Assembly (NCBI GenBank): GCA_031257555.1 | Contig: JAIROK010000131.1 | Location: 1 to 55,284, forward strand | Source: Campylobacteraceae bacterium | GTDB lineage: Bacteria; Campylobacterota; Campylobacteria; Campylobacterales; Campylobacteraceae | Direction: 5' to 3' | Length of the DNA: 55,284 nt | In this document: piece by piece, positions 17,565 to 44,135 of the stretch | How the letters are laid out: every line of letters starts with the position of its first letter | Numbering within the stretch: the stretch's first letter is position 1 | Notes under the pieces: model-generated | Told to the model about the DNA's origin: nothing | The model's database searches: none | What the model saw: only the letters and a program-made list of their open reading frames with translations | Position numbers and translations under genes: made by a program

Positions 17565-17606
17565 AGTTGAATCTTTATTTAAGTTGCGTTAAAAACAGCA
17601 AGTAAG

Positions 17607-17620
17607 TATATATATATATA
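17607..17620. repeat. (TA)7 dinucleotide repeat in the divergent wecB / kpsM promoter region
   Basis: Read directly as tatatatatatata at 17607-17620. It begins 43 nt upstream of the wecB TTG start and overlaps a -10-like TATACT on the minus strand. Confidence 0.9.
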
Positions 17621-17889
17621 TTAATTTTTGATTAATTTTATATTTTTTAATATAGTCATAAAATATAAACATTCAAAGTGTTAAAGAAGTAAATATTAAA
17701 GTATTGTGATAATCATCAATCGTATTAAAAAATATACATATCACACTTTTTTGTTGGGGTTGAGTGGTAAGAGAAAAATAGCACGGTATCCCCTTGTATC
17801 CAAGACTTCGAAAAATATTTTGCATAATCTCACAATCTATTTTCAAAAATGAAATTTTTAGATAAAATGTCTCTAAAATTTGAATACGA

Positions 17890-18696: not shown

Positions 18697-19370
18697 TAAG
18701 ACTTGAAAATCTCACCAAATCTTATCCACTTGAAAACGGTCGGCATTATGTATTTAAAAATCTGTCATTTGAATTTCCTGAAAATTCAAACATAGGTTTG
18801 ATAGGTCCAAATGGCGCCGGCAAAACAACACTTATGAATATTTTAGGCGGCACTGATATACCAGATAGGGGGCGAGTTGTAACAAACAAATCCATCTCTT
18901 TTCCCATAGGTTTTGGAGGCGGACTGCAAGGAAGCTTAAGTGCTGCGGATAATATAAAATTTGTTGCAAGAGTTTATGGTTTTACAGGCGAGAGAATGCG
19001 TCAAAAAGTAGAATATGTGCGGGATTTTGCAGAAATCGGAGAGTTTTTTTACCAACCTATCAAAACTTATTCATCCGGCATGAAAGCGAGAGTCTCTTTT
19101 GGGCTTAGCATGGCATTTGACTTTGACTATTATTTGATAGATGAAGCAGGAGCAGTAGGCGATGCGTCGTTTAAAACAAAAAGTACAGCCATCTATAAAG
19201 AAAAATTAAGTAAATCAAATGTTATAATTGTATCTCACAACATGAATGAAATAAAATCGTTATGTGATCACATTGTAGTTTTCAACGCCGGAGAAGCGCA
19301 TATTTTTAATAATGTAAACGAGGGAATAAAAATGTACCAAAAATTAAAAACAAATGTAGTGCAGCAATGA
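18693..19370 (+). CDS. kpsT: capsule polysaccharide export ABC transporter ATP-binding protein
   Basis: 225 aa with Walker A GPNGAGKTT, signature YSSGMKAR and Walker B YYLIDEA. Its small single-cassette size is typical of KpsT. Confidence 0.9.
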   Translation: MIRLENLTKSYPLENGRHYVFKNLSFEFPENSNIGLIGPNGAGKTTLMNILGGTDIPDRGRVVTNKSISFPIGFGGGLQGSLSAADNIKFVARVYGFTGERMRQKVEYVRDFAEIGEFFYQPIKTYSSGMKARVSFGLSMAFDFDYYLIDEAGAVGDASFKTKSTAIYKEKLSKSNVIIVSHNMNEIKSLCDHIVVFNAGEAHIFNNVNEGIKMYQKLKTNVVQQ

Positions 19371-19409
19371 TAATATGCGATATGCCCCTATATAAAAAGG
19401 ATTCTTACA

Positions 19410-20564
19410 GTGAGTAAACTTAAAAAACTTATCAAAAGTCCAAAAGGATTTTTGATGGATGCATACATAAAAAGAGTGGGCGTGTGGTTTTTAACGAGAA
19501 GTTTTACCATTGTAGTCACCATTCCATTTGCGCTTGCTATTATTTATTATCTATTTTTCGCTGCCGACAGATATGTAAGCGAGAGTATAATATCCGTCAA
19601 ACAAGCAGGCGAATCATCATCAAGTGCGGCAGGATTTGCAGCAATAGTAGGCATAAACACGCACTCCAAAGAAGACACACTTTATTTAAGGGAGTATATG
19701 CATTCATTGGATATGCTCAAAAACTTAGAAAAAGAGATAAACTTACGCGAAATATACACGGCAGAAAAATTAGACTTTTTGTATCGCTTTTACAGCTTTT
19801 TGCCGCAAGAGGATTTTTTAGAATATTACAAAAGCAGAGTCGCTATAGTTTATGATGACATGAGCGGACTTTTAAAGGTAAATGTAGAAGCATTTAAACC
19901 AAAAGATGCTCAAGCGCTTTCGATACTTATACTCAAAAACAGTGAAATTTTTGTCAATGAACTCTCTCATATTATGTCAAGAAAACAACTTGAATTTGCC
20001 GAATGGGAACTTAAAAAATCAGAAAATAGATTGAGCGCGGCAAAAGAGGCAATTTTAAAATTTCAAAACACTTATGGCATTTTCAATCCCATAGAACAAG
20101 CGCAATCGCTTGCTGCTTTAACATTGGAATTTGGAGCAGAACTTGCAAAAAAAGAGGCGGAACTTACAGCATTGTCCTCATATCTTCAAGACAATGCACC
20201 GCAAATAGTAACACTAAAAAGTGAGATAGAAGCCATAAAAAGACAGATAAAAAAGGAGAGTGGACGCGTAGCTGCGAACTCGGATGATTCTACAAATATA
20301 TTGGCTTCCAAATATCAAACATTAATAGTAGAAGCGGATTTTGCGCAAGAATTATATAAATTAGCTCTTAGTGCAGTTGAACAAGCCAGGATAGAGAGCG
20401 CTAAACAGATAAAACATTTATCAGTTATCCAACAACCCTCAATGCCGCAAAGCGCAAAATATCCGCGCGAAATATACAATCTAATCACACTGCTTGCAAT
20501 ACTGTTTTTATTATATGGTATTACAAGATTGATAAAAGCCACAATAGAGGATCACAAATACTAA
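19410..20564 (+). CDS. kpsE: capsule export inner-membrane/periplasmic protein (PCP-3 family)
   Basis: 384 aa with a GTG start preceded by AAAAGGA. It has an N-terminal TM helix, the DRYVSESIISVKQ motif, a coiled-coil periplasmic region and a C-terminal TM helix. Confidence 0.85.
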   Translation: MSKLKKLIKSPKGFLMDAYIKRVGVWFLTRSFTIVVTIPFALAIIYYLFFAADRYVSESIISVKQAGESSSSAAGFAAIVGINTHSKEDTLYLREYMHSLDMLKNLEKEINLREIYTAEKLDFLYRFYSFLPQEDFLEYYKSRVAIVYDDMSGLLKVNVEAFKPKDAQALSILILKNSEIFVNELSHIMSRKQLEFAEWELKKSENRLSAAKEAILKFQNTYGIFNPIEQAQSLAALTLEFGAELAKKEAELTALSSYLQDNAPQIVTLKSEIEAIKRQIKKESGRVAANSDDSTNILASKYQTLIVEADFAQELYKLALSAVEQARIESAKQIKHLSVIQQPSMPQSAKYPREIYNLITLLAILFLLYGITRLIKATIEDHKY

Positions 20565-22174
20565 TGAAAAAGATAGTTTTAATGTTAATTTCGGCTATGT
20601 TTTGTTTTGCCGCGGTAGATGTAGGAGCTATTGTTCATACAGATGAAAATAGCAGCGTTGTTTTGACAAATAAAAATGTCTTTGGTGCTCATCTTTTTAA
20701 CGGAAATTTTGCGAATGTAAAGCAACATATATATAACCCCGACTACCGTATAAACGTGGGCGATACGATACTTTTGAAAATGTGGGGAGCTTTTGAGTTT
20801 GAACAATCTCTTATTGTTGATTCGCAGGGAAATATTTTCGTTCCCAAAGTTGGTGTTATCAAACTTCTTGGAATACGAAACGGCGATATAGTCTCTATCA
20901 TAACACAGCATGTCAAAAATATATTTAAGGATAATGTATTTGTATATGCAGATATGCAGACATATCAAAATGTATCTGTTTTTGTAACTGGAAATGTAAA
21001 TAAACCCGGTCTTTACGAAGGATTGAGTTCAGACTCTTTAATACAGTACCTTGATAAAGCTTCAGGTATCAATAAGCAATACGGCAGTTTTAGAAAAATC
21101 AAAATTTTAAGAAACAATGAGCTTTACAGACAGATAGATTTGTATGATTTTTTAATCGATGGCAAGATGGAATTGATAGCATTTAAAAGCGGTGATGTTA
21201 TTCTTGTTGAAAGCGTAGGTGCATATATCGACGCTAAAGGCGATGTATTAAGAGAATTTAGATTTGAATCAAGACGTGAATTTATGAGCTTGCAAGAACT
21301 TGCCAAATTGGCAGGCATCAAACCAACCACCACAAATGCTATAGTAAAAAGTTACAAAAAAAACAACCGCTTAAGTATCAACTCTTACCATGAAAAAGAG
21401 TTTGACAATGTCTTTTTGCGAGCAGGTGATGAGGTAGAGTTTTTACCCGAACATCTTCCAGATGAGATAAAAATAAATGTTATAGGAGAACACAATGGAC
21501 TTCATACTGTGGTACTCAAAAAAGGTTCTACTCTTCAAGATTTGAAAGATAAGATTGATGTAAATCCGCAATCAAACATGGAAGCCATACAGATATTTAG
21601 AAAAAGTGTAGCCGCAGTGCAAAAAAATCTTTTAGATGCACAGCTTAGAGAACTTGAGACACTCACTTTGACAACCGCTTCCATATCTCCAGAAGAGGCA
21701 AACATGAGGGCGCAGGAGATAAAGGCTATATTGGAATTTATAGAAAGAGCAAGAAAAATCGAACCAAAAGGGCAGATAACAATAAATGAAAAAACTGCTG
21801 CACAAAGCATTATATTAGAAGATGGAGATATCATCAATATACCGACTATAAACAATATAGTTATAGTACAAGGCGAAGTAGGTATCCCCGGTGCATTTAC
21901 ATATATAAACCAACAAAATATCAATGAGTATATATCGCTTGCCGGCGGTTTTAGTCAAAGAGCCAACAAAAAAAGAGTTTTAGTAATAAGGGCAAGCGGT
22001 AAAGCCGAAAATTATGATGCGTCTTTGTTTTCATTTAGTAAACCGAAAGTGCAAGCGGGCGACTCTATACTTGTTCTTCCAAAAGCCGAAGGTAAGACTT
22101 TGCAATTTACAAATCTTATCACTCAAATATTATATAACGTAGCTATAGCAACAAAAGTTATACTTGATATATGA
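20564..22174 (+). CDS. kpsD: capsule polysaccharide export outer-membrane/periplasmic protein (OPX, Wza/KpsD family)
   Basis: 536 aa with a signal peptide, a Poly_export-like N-terminus (INVGDTILLKMWG) and repeated SLBB-like segments (GDVILVES, GDIINIPT, GDSILVLP). Confidence 0.85.
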   Translation: MKKIVLMLISAMFCFAAVDVGAIVHTDENSSVVLTNKNVFGAHLFNGNFANVKQHIYNPDYRINVGDTILLKMWGAFEFEQSLIVDSQGNIFVPKVGVIKLLGIRNGDIVSIITQHVKNIFKDNVFVYADMQTYQNVSVFVTGNVNKPGLYEGLSSDSLIQYLDKASGINKQYGSFRKIKILRNNELYRQIDLYDFLIDGKMELIAFKSGDVILVESVGAYIDAKGDVLREFRFESRREFMSLQELAKLAGIKPTTTNAIVKSYKKNNRLSINSYHEKEFDNVFLRAGDEVEFLPEHLPDEIKINVIGEHNGLHTVVLKKGSTLQDLKDKIDVNPQSNMEAIQIFRKSVAAVQKNLLDAQLRELETLTLTTASISPEEANMRAQEIKAILEFIERARKIEPKGQITINEKTAAQSIILEDGDIINIPTINNIVIVQGEVGIPGAFTYINQQNINEYISLAGGFSQRANKKRVLVIRASGKAENYDASLFSFSKPKVQAGDSILVLPKAEGKTLQFTNLITQILYNVAIATKVILDI

Positions 22175-25690: not shown

Positions 25691-27085
25691 TCACTTATTT
25701 TTAGCAAAGTAGGACTCTATGCCATTTGCTATACCTGTTGTTAAAATTTGCTGAAATTTTTTATTAAACATTCTCTCTCTGTCTATCTTATCGGTAATAT
25801 ACCCTATTTCAAGCAAAACTGCAGGCATCTGTGCACCTGTAAGAACCCAAAACGGAGCTTCTCTTACACCGCCATCAACAACATTTTTGTAGCTTCGTCT
25901 AACTTCGGTTAAAATGTATTGCTGAATATCTATAGCAAGCTTGTGTGAAGCTATAATTTTTTCTCGATTTAAAAAATTTAAAAATGTCTGTTTTGAATAT
26001 AGATTCATCTCTTCGATGTCTGATTTGTTTTCAAGTTCTGCTGCATTTTTAGAACGGACAGAATCAGATGGTGATAAGAAAAAAGTCTCTATGCCTTGCC
26101 AAATGCCATTTTTACTTGTTTTAGGAGCAGCATTGGCATGAATTGATATAAATATATCCGCATTTTTGTCATTTGCTGTTTTTGTCCTGTCTTGTAATTT
26201 TAAATACACATCTTTTGAACGTGTATAAAACACTTTATGTCCTCTTGTTTCAAGCTCCGCACCCAATAAAAGTGCTATTTGCAAAACAACATCTTTTTCT
26301 AACTTTTTGTCGCTTACGGCACCTCCGTCTTTACCGCCATGTCCGGCATCGACAACTATTATCTTTTTTGGAATTTTAACTTTAGGAGTAGTTGTTGCAC
26401 TGATCGTTTTATCATCTTTTTTGGCAGAATTTGCTTGCGAAGCAGCAAATTCTTTTGCGGAAAATTTCAACTCTTTATCTTTTAAATTCAAAATTATGCT
26501 TATATCTTTTTCATGCTCAAAAACAACTCTTATGGTCTCTTTATCAAACTGTGAAATGCGAAAATCTTTTATGCCTTCTATTTTAGGAACAACAGCAGAA
26601 CTTGTCTTAATGCCTTTTATGTCATAAACATATCTTAAGCTTTTATCTTTGAGTTTTAAAAATTTTATTTTTTGCTTTTCGGTTTTTTTGTCAAATACAA
26701 GAACAGCGCTGCCATTATTAACTTTTATTTGTAGAAGTTTGACCAAAACATCTGGCGAAACTATTGTATCTTTTTTTTCTCTTTGCGCGGCAATCGCTGC
26801 AATACTTTGGTATTTTGGCAATTTATCAAGCTCTTTTTTATAAGTAGAGGTATCATAACTTAACTCTTCTGATATCTCTACAAGTCTTTTTAAAACTTCA
26901 TATTTTAAAGTATCATTTGCATCCATAATAGATTTGATATACAAATGCTTTAAATCATCGTAAATGTGCTCTTTTTCATTCCATGTTAAAATAGAAAATT
27001 TGCTGTCAAACTCATCAAGCAATACATTTTCAGCATGTACAAAACAGATAAGCAAAAGTAGATAAGCAAAAACTTTTTTTATCAT
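25691..27085 (-). CDS. amiA: N-acetylmuramoyl-L-alanine amidase (AMIN domain + Amidase_3)
   Basis: 464 aa with a signal peptide and an Amidase_3 domain (VVDAGHGGKDGGA, ISIHANA, GYITD...). Its start ATG shares 1 nt with the upstream gene's stop codon. Confidence 0.85.
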   Translation of the reverse strand: MIKKVFAYLLLLICFVHAENVLLDEFDSKFSILTWNEKEHIYDDLKHLYIKSIMDANDTLKYEVLKRLVEISEELSYDTSTYKKELDKLPKYQSIAAIAAQREKKDTIVSPDVLVKLLQIKVNNGSAVLVFDKKTEKQKIKFLKLKDKSLRYVYDIKGIKTSSAVVPKIEGIKDFRISQFDKETIRVVFEHEKDISIILNLKDKELKFSAKEFAASQANSAKKDDKTISATTTPKVKIPKKIIVVDAGHGGKDGGAVSDKKLEKDVVLQIALLLGAELETRGHKVFYTRSKDVYLKLQDRTKTANDKNADIFISIHANAAPKTSKNGIWQGIETFFLSPSDSVRSKNAAELENKSDIEEMNLYSKQTFLNFLNREKIIASHKLAIDIQQYILTEVRRSYKNVVDGGVREAPFWVLTGAQMPAVLLEIGYITDKIDRERMFNKKFQQILTTGIANGIESYFAKNK

Positions 27086-28173
27086 TATTCGCCGTTTGTC
27101 AGTTTATTCATTAATTCTTTAACGCTTGTAATCTCATTTAACTTATATCCGTTAGCTCCCGTAAAAAACAATCCCGTATCTTCTTTGCCAAAAAATGCAT
27201 CGGACAATCTATCGGCTATACAGTAACCAACTTCTTTTGCCTCTTTGCCTCTTTGGCATGGAGTTACGCAATTGCTGATACATTTGATAGCAGGTCCTTC
27301 TCTTTTATCGATTAAAGATATAAGATTTGTATGGATACCGCGCGCAGGATAACCAACGGGCGATTTTAAAAGATGTATATCTTCTTTTTTAGCTCTAATC
27401 AAAACTTGCTTAAAAACTTCATCTGCATCACACTCATGAGTTCCTATAAAGCGTGTTGCCATCTGTACTCCATCTGCGCCCAAACTCATGATATTATCAA
27501 TGTCATTTTTATCCCAAATACCGCCTGCTGCAATTATAGGAAAATCGCCCCACTCTTTTACTTCATCCTTCAATGGTTTTACAAGATTTTCAAGCTGATA
27601 CTCTTCCATGGCACACTGCTCATAAGTAAAGCCTTGGTGTCCGCCGCTAAGAGGTCCTTCAAGCACAACAGCATCAGGAACACGATTGTATCTTTGTACC
27701 CAGCGTTTGCAAATAATCTTTAAAGCTTTAGCTGAAGAGACTATCGGCACAAGCGCTATGTGCGGAAAATTTTTTGTAAGTTCGGGCAAATTTGTAGGAA
27801 GTCCAGCTCCTGAAATTATAATATCAATACCGGCTTTACAAGCATCAACTACAACTCTGCTATAATCATTAATCGCGCACATTATATTTACGCCAAGAGG
27901 TTTATCTCCGCAAATTTTGCGTGCATTTTGAACTATAACTTTTAAAGCCTCAAGGGAGTGTAGATTTTCAACATCAAACGGACGCGAATTTATAACCCTT
28001 TTGGCATATTTCAAATTTTCATAATATCCTGTTCCTATAGCGCTTATTACTCCAAGTCCGCCCTCTTTGCTTACAGTTCCTGCCAACCTGTCCCAACTCA
28101 CGCCTATTCCCATACCGCCTTGAACTATTGGAAACTTTATCTCGTATCTACCTATTTTAAGTGGTTTTAACAT
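27085..28173 (-). CDS. nitronate monooxygenase / NPD-family FMN oxidoreductase (FabK-like fold)
   Basis: 362 aa with PIVQGGMG, AAGGIWD and GADGVQMATRF motifs of the 2-nitropropane dioxygenase/enoyl-ACP reductase II family. Its composition is host-like. Confidence 0.8.
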   Translation of the reverse strand: MLKPLKIGRYEIKFPIVQGGMGIGVSWDRLAGTVSKEGGLGVISAIGTGYYENLKYAKRVINSRPFDVENLHSLEALKVIVQNARKICGDKPLGVNIMCAINDYSRVVVDACKAGIDIIISGAGLPTNLPELTKNFPHIALVPIVSSAKALKIICKRWVQRYNRVPDAVVLEGPLSGGHQGFTYEQCAMEEYQLENLVKPLKDEVKEWGDFPIIAAGGIWDKNDIDNIMSLGADGVQMATRFIGTHECDADEVFKQVLIRAKKEDIHLLKSPVGYPARGIHTNLISLIDKREGPAIKCISNCVTPCQRGKEAKEVGYCIADRLSDAFFGKEDTGLFFTGANGYKLNEITSVKELMNKLTNGE

Positions 28174-34046: not shown

Positions 34047-34123
34047 TTTATATTATACCTTTCTACTATTTTTTAACTATAAAAATTTATTTTGACACAA
34101 CTCGTATTTAATATTGCTTTTAA

Positions 34124-34561
34124 TCATTGCTTAAATGACACAATTAATTCTACTTCGGTAACAACATAATTGTCTACAAAAGCTTCTCCTCTAATTTTCC
34201 ATACATTCATATATTTTTCAATCAACATTACCTTGTATTTCAATTTATCTCCCGTAACAACATGTTTTCTAAATTTTGCTTTGTCTATTTTTAAAAGATA
34301 TATTTCTTTATCAATATTATTAATTTCATTTTCTAAACTATAAAAAATAAATATACCACTAGCCTGAGCCAATCCTTCAACGATTAAAACATCTGGATAT
34401 ATTGATTTTTTCTGAAAATATCCTTGAAATATTTCTTCATTTATAGTTATATTTTTATAGCATTTCAAAAAAATATTTTTTTGGATCTCAGTAACTCTAT
34501 CTACAAGTAAAAAAGGATATCTATGTGGTAAAACTTTTCTTATATCACTTATGTCCAACAT
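34124..34561 (-). CDS. FabZ-like hotdog-fold protein with catalytic His replaced by Tyr
   Basis: 145 aa with LPHRYPFLLVDRV and NEEIFQGYFQKKSIYPDVLIVEGLAQASG. This aligns with E. coli FabZ [29 protein letters not shown]. His54 becomes Tyr48 (codon 34418-34420), while the Glu of IVEG is retained. Confidence 0.8.
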   Translation of the reverse strand: MLDISDIRKVLPHRYPFLLVDRVTEIQKNIFLKCYKNITINEEIFQGYFQKKSIYPDVLIVEGLAQASGIFIFYSLENEINNIDKEIYLLKIDKAKFRKHVVTGDKLKYKVMLIEKYMNVWKIRGEAFVDNYVVTEVELIVSFKQ

Positions 34562-36111
34562 TAAAAATCCTCAATATTATTATTTTTTAGTATTTGTTTG
34601 TTTACTTTACCCATAATATTTCTTTCTAATTGATTGCAAAATATAAACTGTTTAGGTATTTTGTATTGAGCTAGCTGTTTTTCTAAATATTTTTTCAATA
34701 TTTTTTCATATTCTAACGTATTTATATGTTCATTAATATCGCATTCTATGTATGCAGTTACAACTTCTTCATTTTTCTCATTTAATTTGCCTACTACTGC
34801 CGAAAGCTTGACTATATCATGCTTATCAAGCAAATCTTCAATTTCTTTAGGATAAATATTCATCCCTTTAGATATTATTAAATCCTTTTCTCTTCCGACT
34901 AAAAATAAATATCCTTCTTCATCAAGATAGCCAAGATCACCGGTTTTTAAAAAATTATCTACGATTGTTTTTTTGGTCTCTTCAAAGTTGTTTAGATACC
35001 CCTTCATAATATTTTCACCAGCAACAAATACTTTTCCAATTTCTCTTATTGCTGCCTCTTTTTCATTTTGCATAATTTTAATCTTATAGCCAGGGAATGG
35101 CAACCCTACTGAATTAAGTTTTTGTTTTTTTCTTGGATTTAAAGAAACAGTAGGCCCAGCTTCCGTTAAACCGTAAGCTTCTAACATATCTGCTCCTTTA
35201 AATCTCTTTTGCATTGTTTCTAAAATTTCACTTTGCAGAGGTGACCCGCCTGAAACGAATGCATTTATTTTATTAAAAATAAAAAAATACCACGGTAAAT
35301 TTGCTTTTGATAAGGCTTTATATACTTCTGGCACTCCTAACACTATAGTAACACGCTTTAATAAAATTTCTTTTATTATATTATTAAAAGGCTTTACAGA
35401 TTTTATTATTACAACGCTTGAAAAACTATATAAAGGCAAAATAAGGCCTATAGTAAAAGTAAAAGAGTGAAACATGGGAAGAAAAACTATAAATCTATCT
35501 TTAGATTTAATATTTGCATGTTTTGAACCAGCATCAGCATTAGATAAGATATTTCTATTTGTTAAAATTACACCTTTTGGCTTACCTGTTGTACCAGAAG
35601 TATACATGATCACAGCTTCGTCATCTAACGCTTTTTCACCTCTAGGTATATAACAAATATCGTACTTATCATAAGTTTTATCATTTAAAATAGAATCCTT
35701 ATAAATAATTTTTGAAATTTTTGCTTTGATATTATCGTCTATATTCCTTTCAAAAATATTCGACATTATTATATTTTTAATATCAGCATCATTGATTATA
35801 TATTCAATTTCTCTTGAAGTCAAAAAAGTATTTATTGGAATTGCTATTGCATTTATCTTAGAAATAGCAAATATGGAAACGATATATTCAATACTGTTTT
35901 CCATCAATATCGCAACTCTATCACCACTTTTAATATTTTCAGAAGATAAATGTGCAGCAAAACATTTGGAGTATTTATTAAGCATACTATATGATATTTT
36001 TTTATTTTGATAATATAATGCTATTTTTTTATCATGTTTATTTTTATAAATAATATCATATAAGGTATTACATTTATAGATACTACTATTGCTATTTATT
36101 TTTATTGTCAT
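34561..36111 (-). CDS. AMP-dependent synthetase/ligase (acyl-CoA / acyl-ACP synthetase family)
   Basis: 516 aa with MYTSGTTGKPKGV, GYGLTE-like (AYGLTEAG) and GDLGYLDEEGYLFLVGREKDLIISKG motifs. Confidence 0.85.
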   Translation of the reverse strand: MTIKINSNSSIYKCNTLYDIIYKNKHDKKIALYYQNKKISYSMLNKYSKCFAAHLSSENIKSGDRVAILMENSIEYIVSIFAISKINAIAIPINTFLTSREIEYIINDADIKNIIMSNIFERNIDDNIKAKISKIIYKDSILNDKTYDKYDICYIPRGEKALDDEAVIMYTSGTTGKPKGVILTNRNILSNADAGSKHANIKSKDRFIVFLPMFHSFTFTIGLILPLYSFSSVVIIKSVKPFNNIIKEILLKRVTIVLGVPEVYKALSKANLPWYFFIFNKINAFVSGGSPLQSEILETMQKRFKGADMLEAYGLTEAGPTVSLNPRKKQKLNSVGLPFPGYKIKIMQNEKEAAIREIGKVFVAGENIMKGYLNNFEETKKTIVDNFLKTGDLGYLDEEGYLFLVGREKDLIISKGMNIYPKEIEDLLDKHDIVKLSAVVGKLNEKNEEVVTAYIECDINEHINTLEYEKILKKYLEKQLAQYKIPKQFIFCNQLERNIMGKVNKQILKNNNIEDF

Positions 36112-36536
36112 AATATTATTCCTATAATTTGTTTAATCGCTACAAATGAGATAAAAATAAATGAAATCACCATGCTAAATGTCAATAATTTTAGGTATAT
36201 TTTTGACCTTGCAATATTGATCTTATAAAAATAAAAAATCTGCCATAAAGCTCTCCATGCCCAAAAAACTGCAATTAATAACCAAAACCACAATAAGTTA
36301 TTTGAATTATCCGATATTTGTTTTCCATAAATTATAAATAACATGCCAATTACAAGCAATAATAATGCCACTACCCATAATAGAGTATTGATCAATCTAG
36401 AATTCAAATATGTTACTAATTCAATATTTTTGCTCCATTCTTTAAATAATTTTTTCCACACAAAAGGTATATGCATTATTCCTAGAATAATTTTTAAAAA
36501 ACCACAAATATACAATAGCAAAATAAGATCTTTCAA
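36108..36536 (-). CDS. small integral membrane protein (about 4 TM helices), function unknown
   Basis: 142 aa, very hydrophobic and Trp-rich (LLWFWLLIAVFWAWRALWQIFYFY). An ATGA overlap with the AMP-ligase gene indicates translational coupling. Confidence 0.6.
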   Translation of the reverse strand: MKDLILLLYICGFLKIILGIMHIPFVWKKLFKEWSKNIELVTYLNSRLINTLLWVVALLLLVIGMLFIIYGKQISDNSNNLLWFWLLIAVFWAWRALWQIFYFYKINIARSKIYLKLLTFSMVISFIFISFVAIKQIIGIIL

Positions 36537-36538
36537 AT

Positions 36539-36925
36539 TTAATCCTTTTTAAAGTTTTTTAAAAAAAGATTGTAATATTTATCTGGCATAATAGCTGGTT
36601 TTCCATTTTCAACATACACCAACCTAATATCCATTTCAAAAATTTTTATTCCATTTCTGGTTATAAACTGTTTAGCCAAAACTGATGTTTTTTTTAATAT
36701 AGATATATAACCACCAAGCTTAAGCATATCACCAAGATAAGCAGGCTGCATATAGTTTGCATTTATTGACCTAATAACCAAAGCACCTTTTTCTGATTTC
36801 ATATCAATATCGCTTTCAAAAAATAATTCGCTTCTGGCTCTATCGCAATATTTAATATAATTTGTATGATAAACTATGCCCAAAGCATCAGTATCTTCAT
36901 AGTAAATTCTAATATTCATATTCAC
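36539..36925 (-). CDS. 4HBT/YbgC-type hotdog acyl-CoA (acyl-ACP) thioesterase
   Basis: 128 aa with IRIYYEDTDALGIVYHTNYIKY, the YbgC-family N-terminal catalytic-Asp motif. Confidence 0.8.
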   Translation of the reverse strand: MNMNIRIYYEDTDALGIVYHTNYIKYCDRARSELFFESDIDMKSEKGALVIRSINANYMQPAYLGDMLKLGGYISILKKTSVLAKQFITRNGIKIFEMDIRLVYVENGKPAIMPDKYYNLFLKNFKKD

Positions 36926-36943
36926 TCCTTTATTTTAATTTCA

Positions 36944-37693
36944 TTACATATATAATCCACCATTAATTTTCATGGTTTCTCCAGTAATATATTTTGAATA
37001 ATCACTTAGCAAAAAAGCTACACCATAAGAAACGTCTTCTGCTCTACCGAAATCACCAAGTGGGATTTTGGATATAAAATTATCTTTAACGCTTTTAGGA
37101 AGGTTAAATGTCATGTCTGTATGTACTAATCCAGGTGTTATTGAGTTAAAACGAATATTTCTTCTAGCTCCTTCAAGGGCTAATGTTTTTGTCATAGCAA
37201 TAATTGCTCCTTTTGATGCTGAATAATTTACTTGTCCTATATTTCCAATTTCTCCCGCTATGGAAGATATATTTACCACGCTACCAAACTTTTTCTTTGA
37301 CATAATTTTCAAAGCTTCTTTAGATGTTAAAAAACAAGAAGTTGTATTTATGCTTAGCACATCTGTAAAATTGTCCATATCCATTGATATAGTTAGACTA
37401 TCTTTAGTTATTCCGGCATTATTGACAAGATAATCTAGCTCTTTATCAATTTTACAAATATAATCAAATGCTTCTTTTACATTATTTTCATTAGATGCAT
37501 CAAATTGTATAAGTTCAATATTTGGATTATGAATTTCTTTCTTGATTTTATCTCTAAGTTCAATTGCATTTTTTTCACTTTTATTATAGTTTATCCATAC
37601 TTTTAAACCAAAACCAGCCAACGTTAATGCTATATTTGCACCAATTCCTCTTCCTGCTCCTGTGATAAGGACATTTTTCCCACTAAATTTCAT
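36944..37693 (-). CDS. 3-oxoacyl-ACP reductase (FabG-type SDR)
   Basis: 249 aa with TGAGRGIG cofactor motif, NNAG, and the catalytic S...YSASK tetrad. Confidence 0.88.
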   Translation of the reverse strand: MKFSGKNVLITGAGRGIGANIALTLAGFGLKVWINYNKSEKNAIELRDKIKKEIHNPNIELIQFDASNENNVKEAFDYICKIDKELDYLVNNAGITKDSLTISMDMDNFTDVLSINTTSCFLTSKEALKIMSKKKFGSVVNISSIAGEIGNIGQVNYSASKGAIIAMTKTLALEGARRNIRFNSITPGLVHTDMTFNLPKSVKDNFISKIPLGDFGRAEDVSYGVAFLLSDYSKYITGETMKINGGLYM

Positions 37694-38436
37694 ATATCTT
37701 CCTTGCTAATATATTTTTGAAGAGGAGTATCATATCTATTATCATAGCTACCATTTCTTTTTAAAAGTTTTTTGTAATATATATTTTGTGCAATAAAATT
37801 ATGAATTATGAATGATTTTTTTGACATCTTCAATGGTTTTGCATAGTTTTGAATAAAATGATCATCAAATACGCCATATTTTCCGAAATATATTCCAAGA
37901 TTTTTCAAATCTGTTGTAACTTTTTTAAAATTTAAATGCTTACCAAAATCTTCATCAACTAGCTCTAATAAATTTAGAAATGCTTTTTTAAAACTACTTT
38001 GTTGAATTTTTTTAAATATACTGGCTATTGGTCCAGCACATTTTAATGCAGTTCCATTATATGAAACATTTATATGCCCACAAAAACTTTTAAGATGTTC
38101 AATTAACATTTTAGATCGTTCACTATTTATATACATTTGTTGTATAAAAAAAGAAAATTTTTTTTCATTAATGACATAACTATCTAAATTTTCCATCATT
38201 TTTCTAACGTTCCCAGGCATGGAATGATAAAATACAGGGAACGCAAACAATGTATTTTCGCACTCGTTAATCTTATTTTTTATAATATTTATTTTTTTAC
38301 AGGAAGCATTACCAATATATTCCATGATACATTCATTACCATTAATGCTTTCAAAGCCTTCAATAAAAAAACTTAGATAATAACTTGTATTTCCAAGATT
38401 TTTTTTTGGCGAACCATTAATTATTAATAATTTCAT
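37690..38436 (-). CDS. flavodoxin-fold NAD(P)H-dependent FMN reductase-like protein (no Cys cluster)
   Basis: 248 aa with an N-terminal MKLLIINGSPKKNLGNT phosphate-binding loop typical of the FMN_red/Flavodoxin_2 families, plus a long unique C-terminal extension. Confidence 0.6.
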   Translation of the reverse strand: MKLLIINGSPKKNLGNTSYYLSFFIEGFESINGNECIMEYIGNASCKKINIIKNKINECENTLFAFPVFYHSMPGNVRKMMENLDSYVINEKKFSFFIQQMYINSERSKMLIEHLKSFCGHINVSYNGTALKCAGPIASIFKKIQQSSFKKAFLNLLELVDEDFGKHLNFKKVTTDLKNLGIYFGKYGVFDDHFIQNYAKPLKMSKKSFIIHNFIAQNIYYKKLLKRNGSYDNRYDTPLQKYISKEDI

Positions 38437-38965
38437 AATAAGCCTCTTTTGCGCTAAATTCTCTTATATTTTTAATAAAGACAGGTTTTGTGAACATACT
38501 ATTTGATGCTTCAGTCATTAAATTATTTAATATTTCAAAATCTAATTTTGATTCATTTGACATAAAATCAAATAAAAAAGATGTTTTTGGATATTTTTTA
38601 TATCTTTTTTGATGTCTTGCTATTCCATTAATATATTCGAATTTAATATTTAACAATGGAAGTAATTTATCTAACATAGTTTTTAATTTACTATTTATAA
38701 AGCCATATTTTATTGGGGATATAAAAATAACAAATTCTGATTCAATATATATTTTGTTTATGATATTTGTATCATCTTTCACAATACATAAACCTGGCGT
38801 TTTTATCCAACAAAATAATTCACCAACACAATATTTGATATTATAATCTTTTAAATTTATAACTTTTACCAAATGATTCTTTCCTAATAACTTTAGAAGC
38901 TCTTCAATAAATATCGTTATAACTGAATTATCACATTCATCAGAATTAAATATTGTAATATGCAT
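38417..38965 (-). CDS. degenerate flavodoxin-fold protein (paralogue of the two neighbours)
   Basis: 182 aa with the same beta-alpha-beta start (MHITIFNS) but no GSPK loop. It has a partial Cys motif C-x5-C-x7-C followed by VKDD, which aligns with CIIKDD of the 256-aa paralogue. Confidence 0.45.
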   Translation of the reverse strand: MHITIFNSDECDNSVITIFIEELLKLLGKNHLVKVINLKDYNIKYCVGELFCWIKTPGLCIVKDDTNIINKIYIESEFVIFISPIKYGFINSKLKTMLDKLLPLLNIKFEYINGIARHQKRYKKYPKTSFLFDFMSNESKLDFEILNNLMTEASNSMFTKPVFIKNIREFSAKEAYYEIINN

Positions 38966-38974
38966 AAGTTTTCC

Positions 38975-39745
38975 TTAATTCAACTTCATAAAAGAATACT
39001 TTTCAAAATCAAAGTTTTTAGGATGTATTTTAAATTTTTGACATATTTTCCAAAAAATGTTATGCCCATTGATAAATACATTCGGCTCAACAATATCTTC
39101 GGTCATTTTTGCAATAATATTTTTTGATATAAAACCATTCGTAACTAATTCGCTGCCACCTTGCGTATAAGAATTAAGAATTTCCTCTTGTAATTTTAAA
39201 TTAATTGGTAATTGAAAAAATTCCGATTCTGGTCTATAGATTTCTGCAATAATATCTACTTTCAACAATAAAAAAAACTCTTTAAAATAATATGATGAAA
39301 TCTTAAAAGGACTTTGACCAACCATGTTACCTACCATAAATATTATTGCTGGTGGTAATTTTAAATTTATAGTTTTATAAGTCTTTTTAGTTGCTTTATC
39401 ATACTCTTTGTAGGGTTCATGAGTTATCATGCTTAATCTATCTAGAAAAGATTTCATTGCGCCATTGAACATCAAAGCATATAGCGGAGAAGCATAAAGT
39501 ACATAATTAGAATTAATTATTTTTTGATATATAGCATTAAAATCGTCTTTTATAATACAACTACCAATATTTTGATACCAACATGCAAAACATCCATTGC
39601 ATGTTTTATTAATTATTTCGCTTAAGAAAATATAATTTATAGAAACATCACTTGCGCTTTGCATTCCGCGCATAAAATAATCCAGAAATAATCCAGTTTT
39701 TCCATTTTTACCTTTTGGACTAGAATTTATAATTGTTATTTTCAT
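38975..39745 (-). CDS. iron-sulfur flavoprotein (Isf)-like FMN reductase
   Basis: 256 aa with MKITIINSSPKGKNGKT and CNGCFACWYQNIGSC (C49-x2-C52-x2-C55-x7-C63, nt 39557-39601). This is the compact 4Fe-4S motif described for Isf-family flavoproteins. It is followed by IIKDDF...YASPLY. Confidence 0.65.
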   Translation of the reverse strand: MKITIINSSPKGKNGKTGLFLDYFMRGMQSASDVSINYIFLSEIINKTCNGCFACWYQNIGSCIIKDDFNAIYQKIINSNYVLYASPLYALMFNGAMKSFLDRLSMITHEPYKEYDKATKKTYKTINLKLPPAIIFMVGNMVGQSPFKISSYYFKEFFLLLKVDIIAEIYRPESEFFQLPINLKLQEEILNSYTQGGSELVTNGFISKNIIAKMTEDIVEPNVFINGHNIFWKICQKFKIHPKNFDFEKYSFMKLN

Positions 39746-39976
39746 AGAGCTACTTTCTTATAATTTAATTGAAAAATTCCATTATTAATTATCTTAACCA
39801 CTTCATTTATTGCCATTCTTTATACTATTAAATAATATTATCTTAATATTTATATATTATACCATGTATAATTAACTTATATGAATATAATTTACAATTT
39901 ATTATGATATATTCTTTATATTTATCAATAATATAACTATTAATTTTCAGTTCTATAAATGCTTTATTTAAAACAA

Positions 39977-41110
39977 TCATGCAATTTCCACAATTGATGC
40001 AGCAAATACATTGCCCATGCCACTTCCTAATAATAATATATTTTTAATATTCATTTTTTTATCATAAGATAGAAAATTATGATCTAGTTCTGTTCTATTT
40101 TTAATTCCACGCACAAATCCACTTTTTGCATCTTTTAATGCAATATCTAATTCTACAATTGCATTTGATCCTAATGTATGTCCAATTTCAGGCTTATAAC
40201 TTGTTGCGATAAACTCTTTACCAAAACAATCTCTAATTGCATTACCTTCAGAGATAGAATTAGATTTACTTCCTGTTCCATGAGTTTTGATAAAAGATAT
40301 ATCACTTTTTAATATACCACTTGATTTTAATACCTCATTAATAACTTTTTTGTAACCATCACCATTTTTTGATTGCCCAAAAGGATTTTCAAACTTTTCC
40401 ATACCTAAAACAGTTTTATTCAAATACGCTATTGGAGTATTATTGGATACTTTTATTGATCTTTCATTCTCTATCAATACATAGCCAACGCCATGACCTA
40501 ATCTAAAACTATGATTTTGCGAATCAAAAGAACTTGGCTTTAAACCGCTTTTTTCATCTCTTTCAGATAAAGATGCATTTAACATACCAAATAGCTCTAA
40601 AACCAATGTATTTACTTGATCATCAATTCCAATAACCAAAACTCTATCGACAATATTATTTTTTATCAATAATTCTGCTTCAAAAAATGCTTTATAGCCA
40701 CTTACGCAAGCAGTAGCATCTGTAGTCAAATAATCATGCCAACCTAATTTATTAGCAATTTTTCCACTCAAAATATTTATTAACATAAAAAATGGGGTTT
40801 TAATATTATAATCTGGTTCAACATGGGACATAAGTCTACCAGAACCTGCCCATTCTGATGTCCCAGATGCAACAATAATAGCATTTCTTCCTTCTTTTAA
40901 TGCAAGTTCATTAAAAAAACTTACTTCCTCTAAATCAAAAAGTTCATTGTACATATTTTCACATGTATACCTATATCCAAACTTTATACCATCTAAAAAA
41001 GATGGTATAAAGTTGACATACTGAGGATATCTTTCACCTCTAATACATGTATTTGTTGTATACAAAGCTTTGGTACGAGTTATTGCCACCAAGGAATTGT
41101 TATCTTTCAT
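39977..41110 (-). CDS. divergent beta-ketoacyl synthase (KAS I/II-type thiolase fold)
   Basis: 377 aa with the active-site Cys in TDATACVSGYKAF and His residues in KTHGTGSKSNS and EIGHTLGSNA. It lacks the usual VVITGxG N-terminus. Confidence 0.8.
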   Translation of the reverse strand: MKDNNSLVAITRTKALYTTNTCIRGERYPQYVNFIPSFLDGIKFGYRYTCENMYNELFDLEEVSFFNELALKEGRNAIIVASGTSEWAGSGRLMSHVEPDYNIKTPFFMLINILSGKIANKLGWHDYLTTDATACVSGYKAFFEAELLIKNNIVDRVLVIGIDDQVNTLVLELFGMLNASLSERDEKSGLKPSSFDSQNHSFRLGHGVGYVLIENERSIKVSNNTPIAYLNKTVLGMEKFENPFGQSKNGDGYKKVINEVLKSSGILKSDISFIKTHGTGSKSNSISEGNAIRDCFGKEFIATSYKPEIGHTLGSNAIVELDIALKDAKSGFVRGIKNRTELDHNFLSYDKKMNIKNILLLGSGMGNVFAASIVEIA

Positions 41111-41396
41111 TGGCTATTTCTTTGCATGTTTTATATGTTGTTTTATTTTCTATCAAAAAATCAATAATTATTTTTATATTAGGATTTGGATCGGTAAGTT
41201 TTTCTTTGAAAACTTTATCATTTATTCCATATATTTCTCCTAGTTTTAAGAAAACCATAATAAAATCAAAACTATCTAAACCAGTATCTTTCAATTCTGA
41301 GTCTTCGCTGGTTAATTCTTTAAAATTACTCTTATCATAAATTTCCTCCTTAATTAAATAATTAATTACTGCCAATATTTCTTGTCTATTTTTCAT
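41100..41396 (-). CDS. acyl carrier protein (cluster-specific)
   Basis: 98 aa with a GLDSFDF phosphopantetheine-attachment motif (Ser42) at the start of helix II. It overlaps the KS gene by 11 nt. Confidence 0.8.
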   Translation of the reverse strand: MKNRQEILAVINYLIKEEIYDKSNFKELTSEDSELKDTGLDSFDFIMVFLKLGEIYGINDKVFKEKLTDPNPNIKIIIDFLIENKTTYKTCKEIANER

Positions 41397-41397
41397 A

Positions 41398-42285
41398 TTA
41401 ATTTACCTTTTTTATTTTTTTATTATAGTATTCAGAAAATTCATAAAATAAATCTCGCTTAGAAATTGGTAATTCACCAAAAATCTGAATTAAAGTTTCA
41501 TATTTGTCTTCTAAAACTTTTTTATATGTACTTGTTGTAAAAAACCTTGATACATCATTTGCGCCTTGAACAAAGTAATTACTAACTTCGGCCTGGTGAA
41601 TAAAATGGCTACTTATCACCGCATCTGTAAAATTTTTCCTATGAACATCTTTTGACTTAACCATTCTTGAAATTATTTTTATCCAAGCAGCTTTATGTTT
41701 TATTTCATCTTTTTTAATATTGATTATTATTTTTCTAAAATTATTACTTTCAATATGGCTTTCTATACTGCTATATAATTCAATATTAGTGATTTCACCC
41801 AAGAGATAAGACAGTAGTGATTCGTATGCGTTTTTGTAAAGAGTATTAGTTTCATACATTAGTTCATACAAATGATTGCCTGTTGCATTTTCTATGAAAC
41901 TTTTACCATTTTTTACCAAACTCGCTAATTCTTTTAAGATAAATCCATGTCTCATCTCTTCGTAAGTAATAGTACAGAAACCATATAAATTACTTTCATA
42001 AAAATCACATCCAAGCTCTTTTGGAAGTTTGCGAACTAAATCTTGATGTTGTATCGTAATTCCTATAGCAGAAAGCTCTCCATCTCCAATGCTATCAATC
42101 AATCTAACGATTTCTAGATCATTGTCCGTCAAATTATTTACTATGTCAACATAATCATAATTATTAACATCCCACTTATGATCACCAAGTTTTAGCGACT
42201 TTAATATGTCATATACGCCATGCACTTTTATCTCCTTAATTTTTATTAAACATTCAATTTTTGCTCTTATGGCTACAAAAAACAT
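41398..42285 (-). CDS. ferritin-like di-iron carboxylate protein (putative acyl-ACP desaturase/oxygenase-type enzyme)
   Basis: In 295-aa ORF numbering the ligand pattern is E70 ... E110-x2-H113 (YEEMRH, nt 41947-41961) ... E164 ... E194-x2-H197 (KDEIKH), the classical E/EXXH/E/EXXH pattern. The true start is probably GTG 42225 (AAGGAG 6 nt upstream), because ATG 42285 has no RBS. Confidence 0.55.
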   Translation of the reverse strand: MFFVAIRAKIECLIKIKEIKVHGVYDILKSLKLGDHKWDVNNYDYVDIVNNLTDNDLEIVRLIDSIGDGELSAIGITIQHQDLVRKLPKELGCDFYESNLYGFCTITYEEMRHGFILKELASLVKNGKSFIENATGNHLYELMYETNTLYKNAYESLLSYLLGEITNIELYSSIESHIESNNFRKIIINIKKDEIKHKAAWIKIISRMVKSKDVHRKNFTDAVISSHFIHQAEVSNYFVQGANDVSRFFTTSTYKKVLEDKYETLIQIFGELPISKRDLFYEFSEYYNKKIKKVN

Positions 42286-42353
42286 TGATTGAATTTTATT
42301 TAATTATAGATTTGTCATGTGAAACTAAACTCTTTAAAAATAAAATGATGTAT

Positions 42354-42366
42354 TATATATATATAT
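42354..42366. repeat. (TA)6 tract upstream of the di-iron/ACP/KS operon
   Basis: Read directly as tatatatatatat at 42354-42366, inside the 665-nt non-coding region. Confidence 0.85.
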
Positions 42367-42950
42367 TTATTATCAATTAATTAATTTTATTTGAGTCATA
42401 AATTTCATTAGTAAAAATTAAGTTTAACTATTATTTTTGAAGATTTTTATGAGTTCTATATTGTTTGTTATTGGAAGAATGAATCTGTTATTTTTACTAG
42501 AGTTAATAATGCAATGCATATATTTTATACTGCTAACTTATTGTAATTACAGCAATAACAATAGTACCATGTCGTGTAATTTCAATTTGCGATAACAAAA
42601 TCAAAAAATTTATAATTTTAAATTTTAAAACATTTCATATCACCCATATTTCGCTTACAATAATAAAGAAGAAAAATTGCAATAACAGACGATTGTGTTT
42701 ACAGAAATAAAAAATTTCAATTTATAGTTGAAAATTTGAAGTTTAGGAGTGCTACGTGTTATAAACTAACTATTTGTCTACACTTTGTCTATAATAAGCA
42801 AAAACAATTATTGCAGCATCTCCATAGAAAGCAGATTGTTTTGCTATATCTACAATGGTAAAAGATTTAACAGATTGTTCTTACTCTACTTATTAAAACC
42901 CACAATGACACATTGCCGTGCAAGATATAGAGATAAAAACTTATCTAAAG

Positions 42951-44135
42951 TTATTGTGATATAAGTTCGAGCGGATTTATATGATAATTTTGCTGAGTAA
43001 CTTCTAATGTCAAATCTCTCTCCACTCTGCCTATAACATACCCTTTTTTAATCTTCTCACCAGTTTGTATAGTAGGTGCTATTTTGGAAAGATGAGCATA
43101 GATAGTATGAATTCCGTTTGCATTTTCAACTATAACAACATTTTTAAGCAAAGATGTCTCTTTGGCAAAAATCACCTTACCGTCCAATATATTTTTAACC
43201 TCTTCATTGCTGACAACCGAGCGAAGCACAACAGATTCGTTAAATATTTTAATGCCATAAATCGGGTCTACATAATCTCCAAATTTCTGCTGCACGGTAA
43301 ACTTGTTAAGAGGCGCTATGGTTTTATCACCTTTATAGGTTTTAACTTTGCTTGCTTGATAAGATGAGCCGAGCTTTCTTGCATTCTCAAAATTTTCAGG
43401 TATGGTTATAGCGGTTGATTTTGTACTCTCTTCTTGCTGTAAAATCTTTAAATTTTCAAGAGTTTTTTTTAGCTCCATTTTCTCTTTTTGGATAGTCTGT
43501 ATACGCGCTACATAAGCATCTTGCTCTTTTTTTACATTTGTTATAAGTTTTGTTTTGCCGACTTTTAAATTTTCTAAATTCCTCTTTTTGACAGCCAGCT
43601 CATTTATGCTATTTTGGATATTATTTAACCTTTTTGATGAAGTTTTTATCTTTTCGCTTGCCTTTTCATACTTTAAAGAGTAATCCAAAAACTCCTTATT
43701 GGTAATTTTGCCAAGACTTCTTAAAGCTTCATTTAAAATAACACCATCGTAACTCTCCAAGTATTCGCCGTCAATTATTAAAAAATATGAAAAGTCTCTT
43801 GCTATCAAATCAGTAAGTTTGCTTTCTATCTCTTTTTGCTCTTTTAAAAGTTCCTTGTTACTTTTTTCAAGTTCGATAAGTTCGCCTTTTATATTATCTA
43901 CGATTAACTGCTGTTTTTCTATTTCTCCATTTAGCTTGTTTATTTGCAAATCGGTATCTTTTAGCAATTTCTCCTCTTTTTGGAGTGTTTTTGAGATATC
44001 ATTTAATTCACGAGTAAGTGTTTTTTCGAGTTGATTTTTACTTTCTAACTCTTTATTGCTGCCTGCAATATCAGACAAAGTATCAGCTTTTAAAAATATT
44101 AGTCCCATAAAAGCAAGGAGCAACAGATGCTTCAT
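42951..44135 (-). CDS. EnvC-like murein hydrolase activator (coiled coil + degenerate LytM/M23 domain)
   Basis: 394 aa with a signal peptide, about 230 aa of heptad-rich coiled coil and a C-terminal LytM fold (NGIHTIYAHLSKI, GYVIGRV). The HxxxD and HxH metal ligands are absent; DLTLEV occupies the position where HLHFE is expected. Confidence 0.8.
   Translation of the reverse strand: MKHLLLLAFMGLIFLKADTLSDIAGSNKELESKNQLEKTLTRELNDISKTLQKEEKLLKDTDLQINKLNGEIEKQQLIVDNIKGELIELEKSNKELLKEQKEIESKLTDLIARDFSYFLIIDGEYLESYDGVILNEALRSLGKITNKEFLDYSLKYEKASEKIKTSSKRLNNIQNSINELAVKKRNLENLKVGKTKLITNVKKEQDAYVARIQTIQKEKMELKKTLENLKILQQEESTKSTAITIPENFENARKLGSSYQASKVKTYKGDKTIAPLNKFTVQQKFGDYVDPIYGIKIFNESVVLRSVVSNEEVKNILDGKVIFAKETSLLKNVVIVENANGIHTIYAHLSKIAPTIQTGEKIKKGYVIGRVERDLTLEVTQQNYHINPLELISQ

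Follow-up and report, generated by a model that had tools for sequence, protein, structure and literature searches.

The DNA stretch considered here comprises 55,284 nucleotides of contig JAIROK010000131.1 from a Campylobacteraceae bacterium (assembly GCA_031257555.1) and is referred to as the window. On its minus strand it carries three tightly packed genes, which encode a predicted ferritin-like di-iron oxidase (FDO, 275 aa, GTG start, 41398..42225), a divergent private acyl carrier protein (ACP, 98 aa, 41100..41396) and a short, divergent ketosynthase (KS) of the 3-ketoacyl-ACP synthase (KAS) I/II type (377 aa, 39977..41110). The FDO open reading frame (ORF) ends at 41398 and the ATG of the ACP gene lies at 41396, leaving 1 nt between them, and the ORFs of the ACP (41100-41396) and the KS (39977-41110) overlap by 11 nt, in agreement with the arrangement described in a first-pass annotation made from the DNA letters alone. 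That annotation had proposed an ACP-tethered oxidative tailoring enzyme. This proposal is supported by the predicted fold of the protein, by its invariant candidate ligands, by its relatedness to desaturases and by the conserved synteny with ACP and KS genes. The trio heads eleven co-directional genes in a low-GC island of 8.8 kb (34100..42950, GC 0.21-0.31), which is located between the housekeeping fabF (GC 0.39-0.42, above the TIGR03150 cutoff) and the M23-peptidase/ftsEX region. This low-GC gene cluster was acquired by horizontal transfer.

The FDO gene lies within a 295-aa ORF (41398-42285, minus strand). All six residues that had been picked out as two E...ExxH half-sites are present in this ORF (E70, E110, H113, E164, E194 and H197), with no further ExxH besides those at 110 and 194. 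The true protein has 275 aa, because a search of 5.8 billion clustered proteins gave 24 homologs, all but one of which measure 273-278 aa, and the full-length ones begin in the alignment at the residue equivalent to the window GTG. This agrees with the start codon suggested earlier (42225-42223) and its Shine-Dalgarno sequence AAGGAG (minus strand, 42237-42232), which is separated from it by a spacer of 6 nt; an AAGGA-like purine run also precedes the start in aligned related loci. In the numbering of the 275-aa protein, which equals the 295-aa numbering minus 20 and is used from here on, the candidate ligands are E50, E90xxH93, E144 and E174xxH177. Their spacings of 40/51/30 are close to the 38/50/33 of the castor acyl-ACP desaturase, as had been proposed, and the castor positions quoted for this comparison (E105, E143xxH146, E196 and E229xxH232) are correct on a sequence that was checked against PDB 1oq4_A beforehand.

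Across 23 close homologs (51-75% identity) none of the six ligand residues varies. When 1.84 billion representative proteins were searched exhaustively with an HMMER profile, a family of 26 clusters was obtained, nearly all of 253-317 aa, of which 25 have E <= 1e-10, followed by a sharp drop; the search revealed no link to other di-iron families. The alignment of 26 sequences, which reaches down to 24% identity, contains 12 invariant columns. The proposed ligands account for six of these, W18, G94 and D173 are among the rest, and R92 and N147 are each conserved in at least 90% of the members. The identity between lineages of the family amounts to only 24-33%. The family is thus extremely small and it is without a family model in the libraries searched, i.e., neither Pfam nor NCBIfam nor PHROGs holds one of its own, and the only name given to a member in any source is 'hypothetical protein'.

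The ACP assignment is based on a match to TIGR00517 (E 0.008), on phrog_28189 and on a profile comparison with AcpP; a Pfam match was not obtained for the window ACP. Its predicted phosphopantetheine attachment site is Ser42 in the motif GLDSFDF. In hhalign, a ten-member family of these ACPs aligns with E. coli AcpP (sequence verified against 1l0h) with 90% probability and E 1.4e-6, and the invariant Asp-Ser of the family falls on AcpP Ser36. The small ORFs located beside every short KS are homologous to one another and to the window ACP, and a phage homolog matches phrog_5934, 'acyl carrier protein'. The private ACPs (window 41100-41396; L017, L019, L022, L023 and L025 among the related loci, which are labelled with L numbers) have 90-110 aa and are longer than AcpP, and most of them carry after the last helix a C-terminal '(E/N)xxKT' that has no counterpart in AcpP.

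The KS was assigned by alignment with FabF, by Pfam and by phrog_35856. Its catalytic residues C135, H277 and H311 as well as K306 are intact in the FabF alignment and invariant in the KS alignment, confirming the Cys-His-His triad noted before, and the window KS has what a decarboxylative Claisen condensation requires. PF00109 and PF02801 both score above threshold. Unlike FabF/FabB-type enzymes, with which it shares the triad, the lysine and both Pfam KS domains, the window KS carries an N-terminal deletion of about 24 aa relative to FabF, has GMGN instead of GFGG and is only 20-22% identical to FabF, compared to 36-37% identity with the phage versions described below. It misses the FabF equivalog cutoff (94.8 vs 493.75 bits), its best library match is the phage family phrog_35856 (E 1.2e-42) and not the FabF model (E 4.5e-27), and the nearest PDB entry, FabF, reaches only E 4e-15. 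At least 177 relatives of 316-379 aa were found, nearly all of 355-379 aa. As judged from their sequences, these short ketosynthases form a subfamily of their own.

For FDO, an AlphaFold2 (AF2) model calculated with the family alignment as input is all-helical with a predicted local distance difference test score (pLDDT) of 84.6 and a predicted template modeling score (pTM) of 0.86. The candidate ligands lie on the helices 44-51, 69-106, 133-155 and 161-191 of the model. Together, the helix pattern and the alignments suggest that the ligand side chains converge on a metal site. A Foldseek search of the PDB, which the first-pass annotation had recommended, returned the castor and ivy stearoyl-ACP desaturases at the top (E 5e-3, probability 1.00, query-normalized template modeling score (TMq) 0.51-0.56), followed by the cyanobacterial aldehyde-deformylating oxygenase (cADO), with a target-normalized score (TMt) of 0.49-0.58, R2lox (R2-like ligand-binding oxidases) and PaaA/PaaC, all of them weak. 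cADO, R2lox and PaaAC are di-iron enzymes that handle lipids or acyl thioesters. Foldseek against viral structures gave weak matches to the R2 subunit of ribonucleotide reductase (RNR) only.

The relation to the desaturases is most apparent at the profile level. In hhalign the broad family alignment matches the castor desaturase with 80% probability and E 1.4e-5 over 173 columns, pairing E90/R92/H93/G94 with E143/R145/H146/G147 (EE-x-RHG with EENRHG), E144 with E196, D173/E174/H177 with D228/E229/H232 (DE-xx-H with DEKRH) and W18 with castor W62. Castor W62, R145 and D228 reportedly form a second shell around the iron ligands, and their equivalents W18, R92 and D173 are conserved in the FDO family. 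The desaturase family PF03405 was matched by all but one of the 23 close members and by 22 of the 26 broad ones (best E 8e-7, mostly sub-threshold), and in this member-by-member scan it reached more members than any other enzyme family. The evidence supports FDO as a predicted ferritin-like four-helix-bundle di-metal carboxylate protein with a putative metal site, and it supports the soluble acyl-ACP desaturases (PF03405; castor delta-9 enzyme, PDB 1afr/1oq4) as its nearest detectable relatives. The first-pass annotation had allowed for Glu/His residues lying away from a dimetal site or for membership in a ferritin or DUF family; in the model the four expected helices carry these residues, and FDO does not belong to a ferritin- or storage-type family.

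The genomic context of the FDO gene was inspected in ten independent lineages of the family. In nine of these ten it is adjoined by an ACP gene and/or a KS gene, the gene order being shuffled. The order FDO, ACP, KS is found in the Sulfurovum/Sulfurimonas clade that includes the window (L001-L008), in L020, in L011/L012 and in L025-L027, the order ACP, KS, FDO in L017 and the pair KS, FDO in L021. In two further lineages (L019 and L010) an ACP gene lies next to the FDO gene, and in L013 the order is FabF-like KS, MaoC, ACP, FDO, thioesterase, short-chain dehydrogenase/reductase (SDR), thioesterase. The KS of the trio loci has 355-379 aa and the Cys-His-His residues. The association of the FDO gene with genes for a private ACP and a divergent KS is therefore supported as a conserved synteny and not a one-off. 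The tenth lineage (L015/L016) shows no ACP or KS, and MauE-like membrane proteins and a cytochrome-c-like protein are found instead, which suggests a different substrate context. In L015 (545-5358), and likewise in L016, the FDO gene is flanked by genes for two paralogous MauE-like proteins of 367 and 365 aa and for a protein of 552 aa that shows weak matches to cytochrome-c and Cu2-monooxygenase-C.

The clusters related to that of the window swap parts. Some Sulfurovum-type clusters carry a metallo-beta-lactamase-fold protein, a flavoprotein fused to SCP2 or a second FabF-like KS. In L004 (11707-18471), and likewise in L005, L006 and L008, the trio is followed by a metallo-beta-lactamase-fold protein, the SCP2-fused flavoprotein and a type I polyketide synthase (PKS) of 2424 aa (KS-AT-KR-DH). 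The L001-type island is bordered by toxin-antitoxin genes and an integrase.

The trio also occurs in phages. In L011/L012 it has a tail-fibre gene on one side and an endolysin/spanin/PhoH/DnaB/primase block on the other. The 87-kb contig L025 encodes portal, capsid and head-fibre proteins and a GH108 endolysin; its FDO member (274 aa) is followed by ACP and KS, matches the family in hhalign with 100% and E 1.5e-64 and is 30% identical to the window protein. In L021, the KS/FDO pair lies beside a tail-fibre-like protein. To survey viral genomes, IMG/VR was scanned with the KS alignment, which gave at least 561 confirmed viral stretches with an ACP-KS cassette, and the best 80 loci were examined. 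Among these best 80, 76 are ACP-KS and two are FDO-ACP-KS, and the two latter carry the KS closest to that of the window (45% identity). These trios were reached only via the KS, as scans of IMG/VR with patterns from single FDO proteins returned nothing and the broad FDO alignment is too divergent to seed a scan. Similarly, a tblastn search of 50,697 GenBank phages with two family members gave no FDO homolog. The ACP-KS pair is thus a common phage cassette, and a few phages carry the full trio.

The phage cassette sits in a conserved block of virion structural genes. Upstream of it a virion protein of about 640-710 aa (phrog_3287) is encoded, an unannotated protein of about 145-160 aa follows directly after the KS in 62 of the 80 viral loci, and a Thr/Gly-rich protein of about 680 aa is found downstream. 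The phage genome MW202545 from GenBank shows the same kind of arrangement, with ACP, KS and a 146-aa protein (MW202545.1 22437-23815). Proteins of 174-208 aa upstream of the phage trios were considered as a fourth conserved component and rejected, as they are unrelated to each other; moreover, seven of eight GenBank 'phage' matches to the short KS were discarded, being ordinary FabF-like proteins in unannotated records. In L023, which represents the commonest ACP-KS phage type, a polyvalent protein of 4635 aa (16542-21089; LPD1, AAA_34, Helicase_C_4, LPD38) is encoded a few genes downstream of the cassette.

The remaining genes of the island, all on the minus strand, encode candidate partners of the trio. 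The gene next to the KS codes for a flavoprotein of the FMN_red family (38975..39745; PF03358, E 3.6e-13) with the motif CxxCxxC(x7)C, which by its sequence is the pattern of iron-sulfur flavoproteins; it resembles Isf and carries a putative [4Fe-4S] cluster. The nearest PDB chain, 7d38, has the same Cys motif, the four Cys are conserved in the flavoproteins of related loci, and such four-Cys flavoproteins recur in most of the related Campylobacterota clusters examined (L001-L006 and L008), with none in L007. Further downstream follow a FabG-type 3-oxoacyl-ACP reductase (36944..37693; NF004199, 335.9 bits vs a cutoff of 301), a thioesterase of the YbgC/FadM-type 4HBT group, which is likely to serve as release step (36539..36925; TIGR00051, 86.8 bits vs a cutoff of 68.7), a FadD-like AMP-forming acyl ligase, likely for primer activation (34561..36111; PF00501, E 9.7e-79; NF004837, 444 bits), and, as last island gene, a FabZ 3-hydroxyacyl-ACP dehydratase (34124..34561; NF000582, 157.8 bits vs a cutoff of 113; GC 0.24). 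Neither an enoyl reductase nor a malonyl transferase was found in the island, and the same holds true for an acyl-ACP reductase and for biotin genes.

From these observations we infer an ACP-bound substrate, an electron donor, an order of steps, a type of reaction and a product as follows. An acyl primer, either a host acyl-ACP or a primer activated by the AMP-ligase of the island, would be taken by the KS, which would condense it with malonyl on the private ACP, resulting in a chain on a carrier that the di-iron enzyme may recognize. The Isf-like four-Cys flavoprotein with its predicted [4Fe-4S] cluster (38975-39745) is proposed as electron donor to the di-iron site and would provide two electrons per turnover. 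The reduced di-iron enzyme would activate O2 and oxidize a C-H position of the tethered chain, the beta-keto group and beta-carbon might be processed by FabG and FabZ, and the YbgC-type thioesterase would release the product. FDO is thus probably an O2-activating ferritin-like di-iron oxidase that acts on an ACP-bound acyl chain, desaturase-type chemistry being favored. The most likely reaction is dehydrogenation, i.e., the insertion of a double bond, followed by hydroxylation or another C-H functionalization; desaturation specifically is put forward only tentatively.

Several observations weigh against an acyl-ACP oxidase with desaturase-type chemistry. The best Foldseek match has E 5e-3 and none in the PDB reaches E 1e-3. 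Against PF03405 the window protein reaches 10.8 bits (E 0.21), the gathering threshold being 22.7. The first ligand E50 lands in hhalign on castor D101, one helical turn away from E105, the position of castor T199 is occupied by Asn in the family (N147), and FDO falls short of the plant desaturases by about 90 residues. Because of the displaced E50, the Asn at the T199 position, the shorter chain and the failed Pfam threshold, the family is treated as a remote offshoot of the acyl-ACP desaturases and not as a member. Furthermore, the L015/L016 lineage lacks a nearby ACP or KS, and in phages the trio comes without a reductase, FabG or thioesterase, so that there it must rely on components of the host or carry out a simpler task than the pathway outlined above. 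Finally, quite different chemistry on acyl-ACP substrates is possible with a desaturase-like di-iron fold, as CylC-type halogenases and BioE demonstrate (PMC8406957, PMC12704756).

What FDO shares with the soluble desaturases are the E, EExRHG, E and DExxH motifs, the predicted four-helix-bundle di-iron site with the ligand spacings and second-shell equivalents given above and, presumably, an ACP thioester as substrate; the desaturases are also its best, albeit weak, fold and profile matches. The desaturases have about 11 helices and 330-365 aa. The exhaustive HMMER search found no link between the FDO family and them, and in the window the enzyme is coupled to an ACP of its own and a dedicated KS and not to the housekeeping ACP. 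Moreover, the FDO family is found in Campylobacterota islands and phages.

The same fold and an ACP-bound substrate would also suit a hydroxylation or CylC-like halogenation of a starter chain, which is then passed to a downstream fatty acid synthase (FAS) or PKS. This is a rather unlikely alternative, which is strengthened by the Sulfurovum-type loci L004-L006 and L008 with trio, flavoprotein and then the 2424-aa type I PKS, by the AMP-ligase of the window island and by N147, which differs from the desaturase residue at the T199 position. The CylC/BrtJ halogenases are di-metal carboxylate enzymes as well, in which the fatty acyl chain is loaded by an AMP-ligase onto a dedicated ACP and handed over to a PKS (PMC8406957), and this operon logic matches the L004-type loci and resembles the window. 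However, no sequence relationship to these enzymes was detected in the exhaustive profile search, CylC homologs were described from cyanobacterial clusters (PMC8406957), and nothing in the window indicates a halogenated product. In addition, the exhaustive profile search returned the 26 clusters only and no tie to another di-iron family, and the desaturases are the only Pfam enzyme family that was matched consistently. An AurF/CmlI-like N-oxygenase acting on an amine-bearing starter unit is very improbable: AurF-type enzymes supply PKS starter units, and the phage member L025 shows a weak AurF match (E 5.2e-5), but PF11583 was touched by only two of the 26 members (best E in that set 0.032) and amine-forming genes are lacking in the island. 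AurF carries an extra His ligand, of which no counterpart was seen in FDO, no search aimed at it having been made.

A cleavage or deformylation of the ACP-bound chain in the manner of BioE or cADO, leading to a shortened acid, a dicarboxylate or a hydrocarbon, is improbable. cADO is among the best Foldseek matches (TMt 0.49-0.58, a general fold similarity only) and is similar to FDO in size and, presumably, in its use of lipid substrates, and with 275 aa FDO is nearer to cADO and BioE than to plant desaturases in size. At the profile level, however, hhalign of the family with cADO (sequence verified against 2oc5) gives a probability of 0.4%, compared to 80% for the desaturase, and cADO uses free aldehydes delivered by the acyl-ACP reductase that is absent from the island. 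BioE is a small ferritin-like, cADO-like di-iron oxygenase that initiates biotin synthesis; it acts on long-chain acyl-ACP/CoA thioesters, cleaving a C-C bond to yield a pimeloyl thioester, its ligands are E26/E53/H56/E125/E155/H158, and it is encoded in bio operons under BioL control (PMC12704756). Its reported ligand spacing of 27/69/30, on which this comparison is based, differs from the 40/51/30 of the window protein, and bio genes are absent from the window island and from its flanks. The idea that FDO is a non-catalytic or protective ferritin/rubrerythrin-like protein for iron storage or peroxide detoxification, and a neighbor of lipid genes merely by chance, is very unlikely as well, even though the top library matches of the window protein are of this kind: Rubrerythrin (PF02915) scores 16.6-16.9 bits (threshold 22.8) and encapsulated ferritin (TIGR04535) 24.2 bits (cutoff 125), and the EncFtn model of Pfam was matched below its threshold. 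These matches lie far under threshold and span residues ~136-233 only, i.e., the one E...ExxH helix pair of the second half-site. Sequence searches of the PDB, whether started from the window protein, from the profile of the family or from a phage member, likewise gave only marginal half-site matches to encapsulated ferritins. Moreover, the window protein has no rubredoxin domain, the synteny with ACP and KS is kept across very divergent lineages and phages, and over its whole length the predicted fold matches, albeit weakly, substrate-oxidizing di-iron enzymes.

The occurrence of the trio on top of a commoner phage ACP-KS cassette among virion structural genes points to a phage-directed acyl-chain pathway. 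It is conceivable, albeit doubtful, that phages spread the trio as a mobile module that would put a host acyl chain on the private ACP and oxidize it, giving a modified fatty acyl group for use during infection, e.g., for remodeling of the host envelope or for lipidation of a virion or ejection protein, and that this module was captured by Campylobacterota into a larger lipid or polyketide pathway. If true, this would be the first phage-encoded acyl-ACP di-iron oxidase system; literature searches for a phage KS/ACP/di-iron system or for the di-iron family returned no description. The predicted ferritin-like di-iron oxidase of a carrier-bound acyl chain is set apart by private ACP and short KS partners, which it has almost always, and by its occurrence in phages. 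Few ferritin-like di-iron enzymes act on carrier-bound acyl chains, and the desaturases, the CylC halogenases and BioE each revealed new chemistry. The family escaped the Pfam, NCBIfam, PHROGs and PADLOC libraries; PADLOC gave no defense-system matches among the proteins scanned. Knowing the product would shed light on the manipulation of lipids by phages, and the enzyme could add a biocatalyst for selective C-H oxidation. As ACP, dedicated KS and candidate reductases are encoded in one operon, the island provides a ready-made test system.

Upstream of FDO, the first-pass annotation had placed a promoter with a TATAAT hexamer as -10 box and a leader of ~75 nt. The hexamer is present (minus strand, 42308-42303); the promoter itself finds no support from scanning or conservation. 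The surrounding DNA has about 25% GC, a sigma-70 scan of 41900-43000 called 10 sites compared to 8.3 +/- 3.0 in shuffled sequences without calling the TATAAT at 42308-42303, no conserved upstream DNA was found among five related loci aligned, and the AT-rich gap of about 725 bp (42226-42950) contains no ORF of note, Rfam match or terminator. Because of the AT-rich DNA, the lack of an excess of sites, the lack of upstream conservation and the lack of an Rfam match, promoter and 75-nt leader remain a guess. Gaps of 350-800 bp also precede the FDO gene in related loci.

Three further proteins complete the island on the minus strand. A second FMN_red-like protein (182 aa, 38417..38965) has a degenerate Cys motif and a third (248 aa, 37690..38436) is without it; these two flavodoxin-like genes (37690-38965) are diverged copies of the first, in which the four-Cys motif was partly or wholly lost. 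Between thioesterase and ligase lies a hydrophobic, probably membrane-located protein of 142 aa (36108..36536), which has no family match in the libraries scanned. Outside of the island, the window encodes next to tyrS a 362-aa flavoprotein of the nitronate monooxygenase family (27085-28173; PF03060, E 9e-83) with weak similarity to FabK, which presumably may be a FabX-type enzyme of the unsaturated fatty acid synthesis of Campylobacterota. Moreover, the window has two adjoining Capsule_synth genes (PF05159, 22171-25403; 680 and 397 aa) that look like a capsule lipid-linker pair of the KpsC/KpsS type, and the GC content of the window dips to 0.27 around 24-26 kb.

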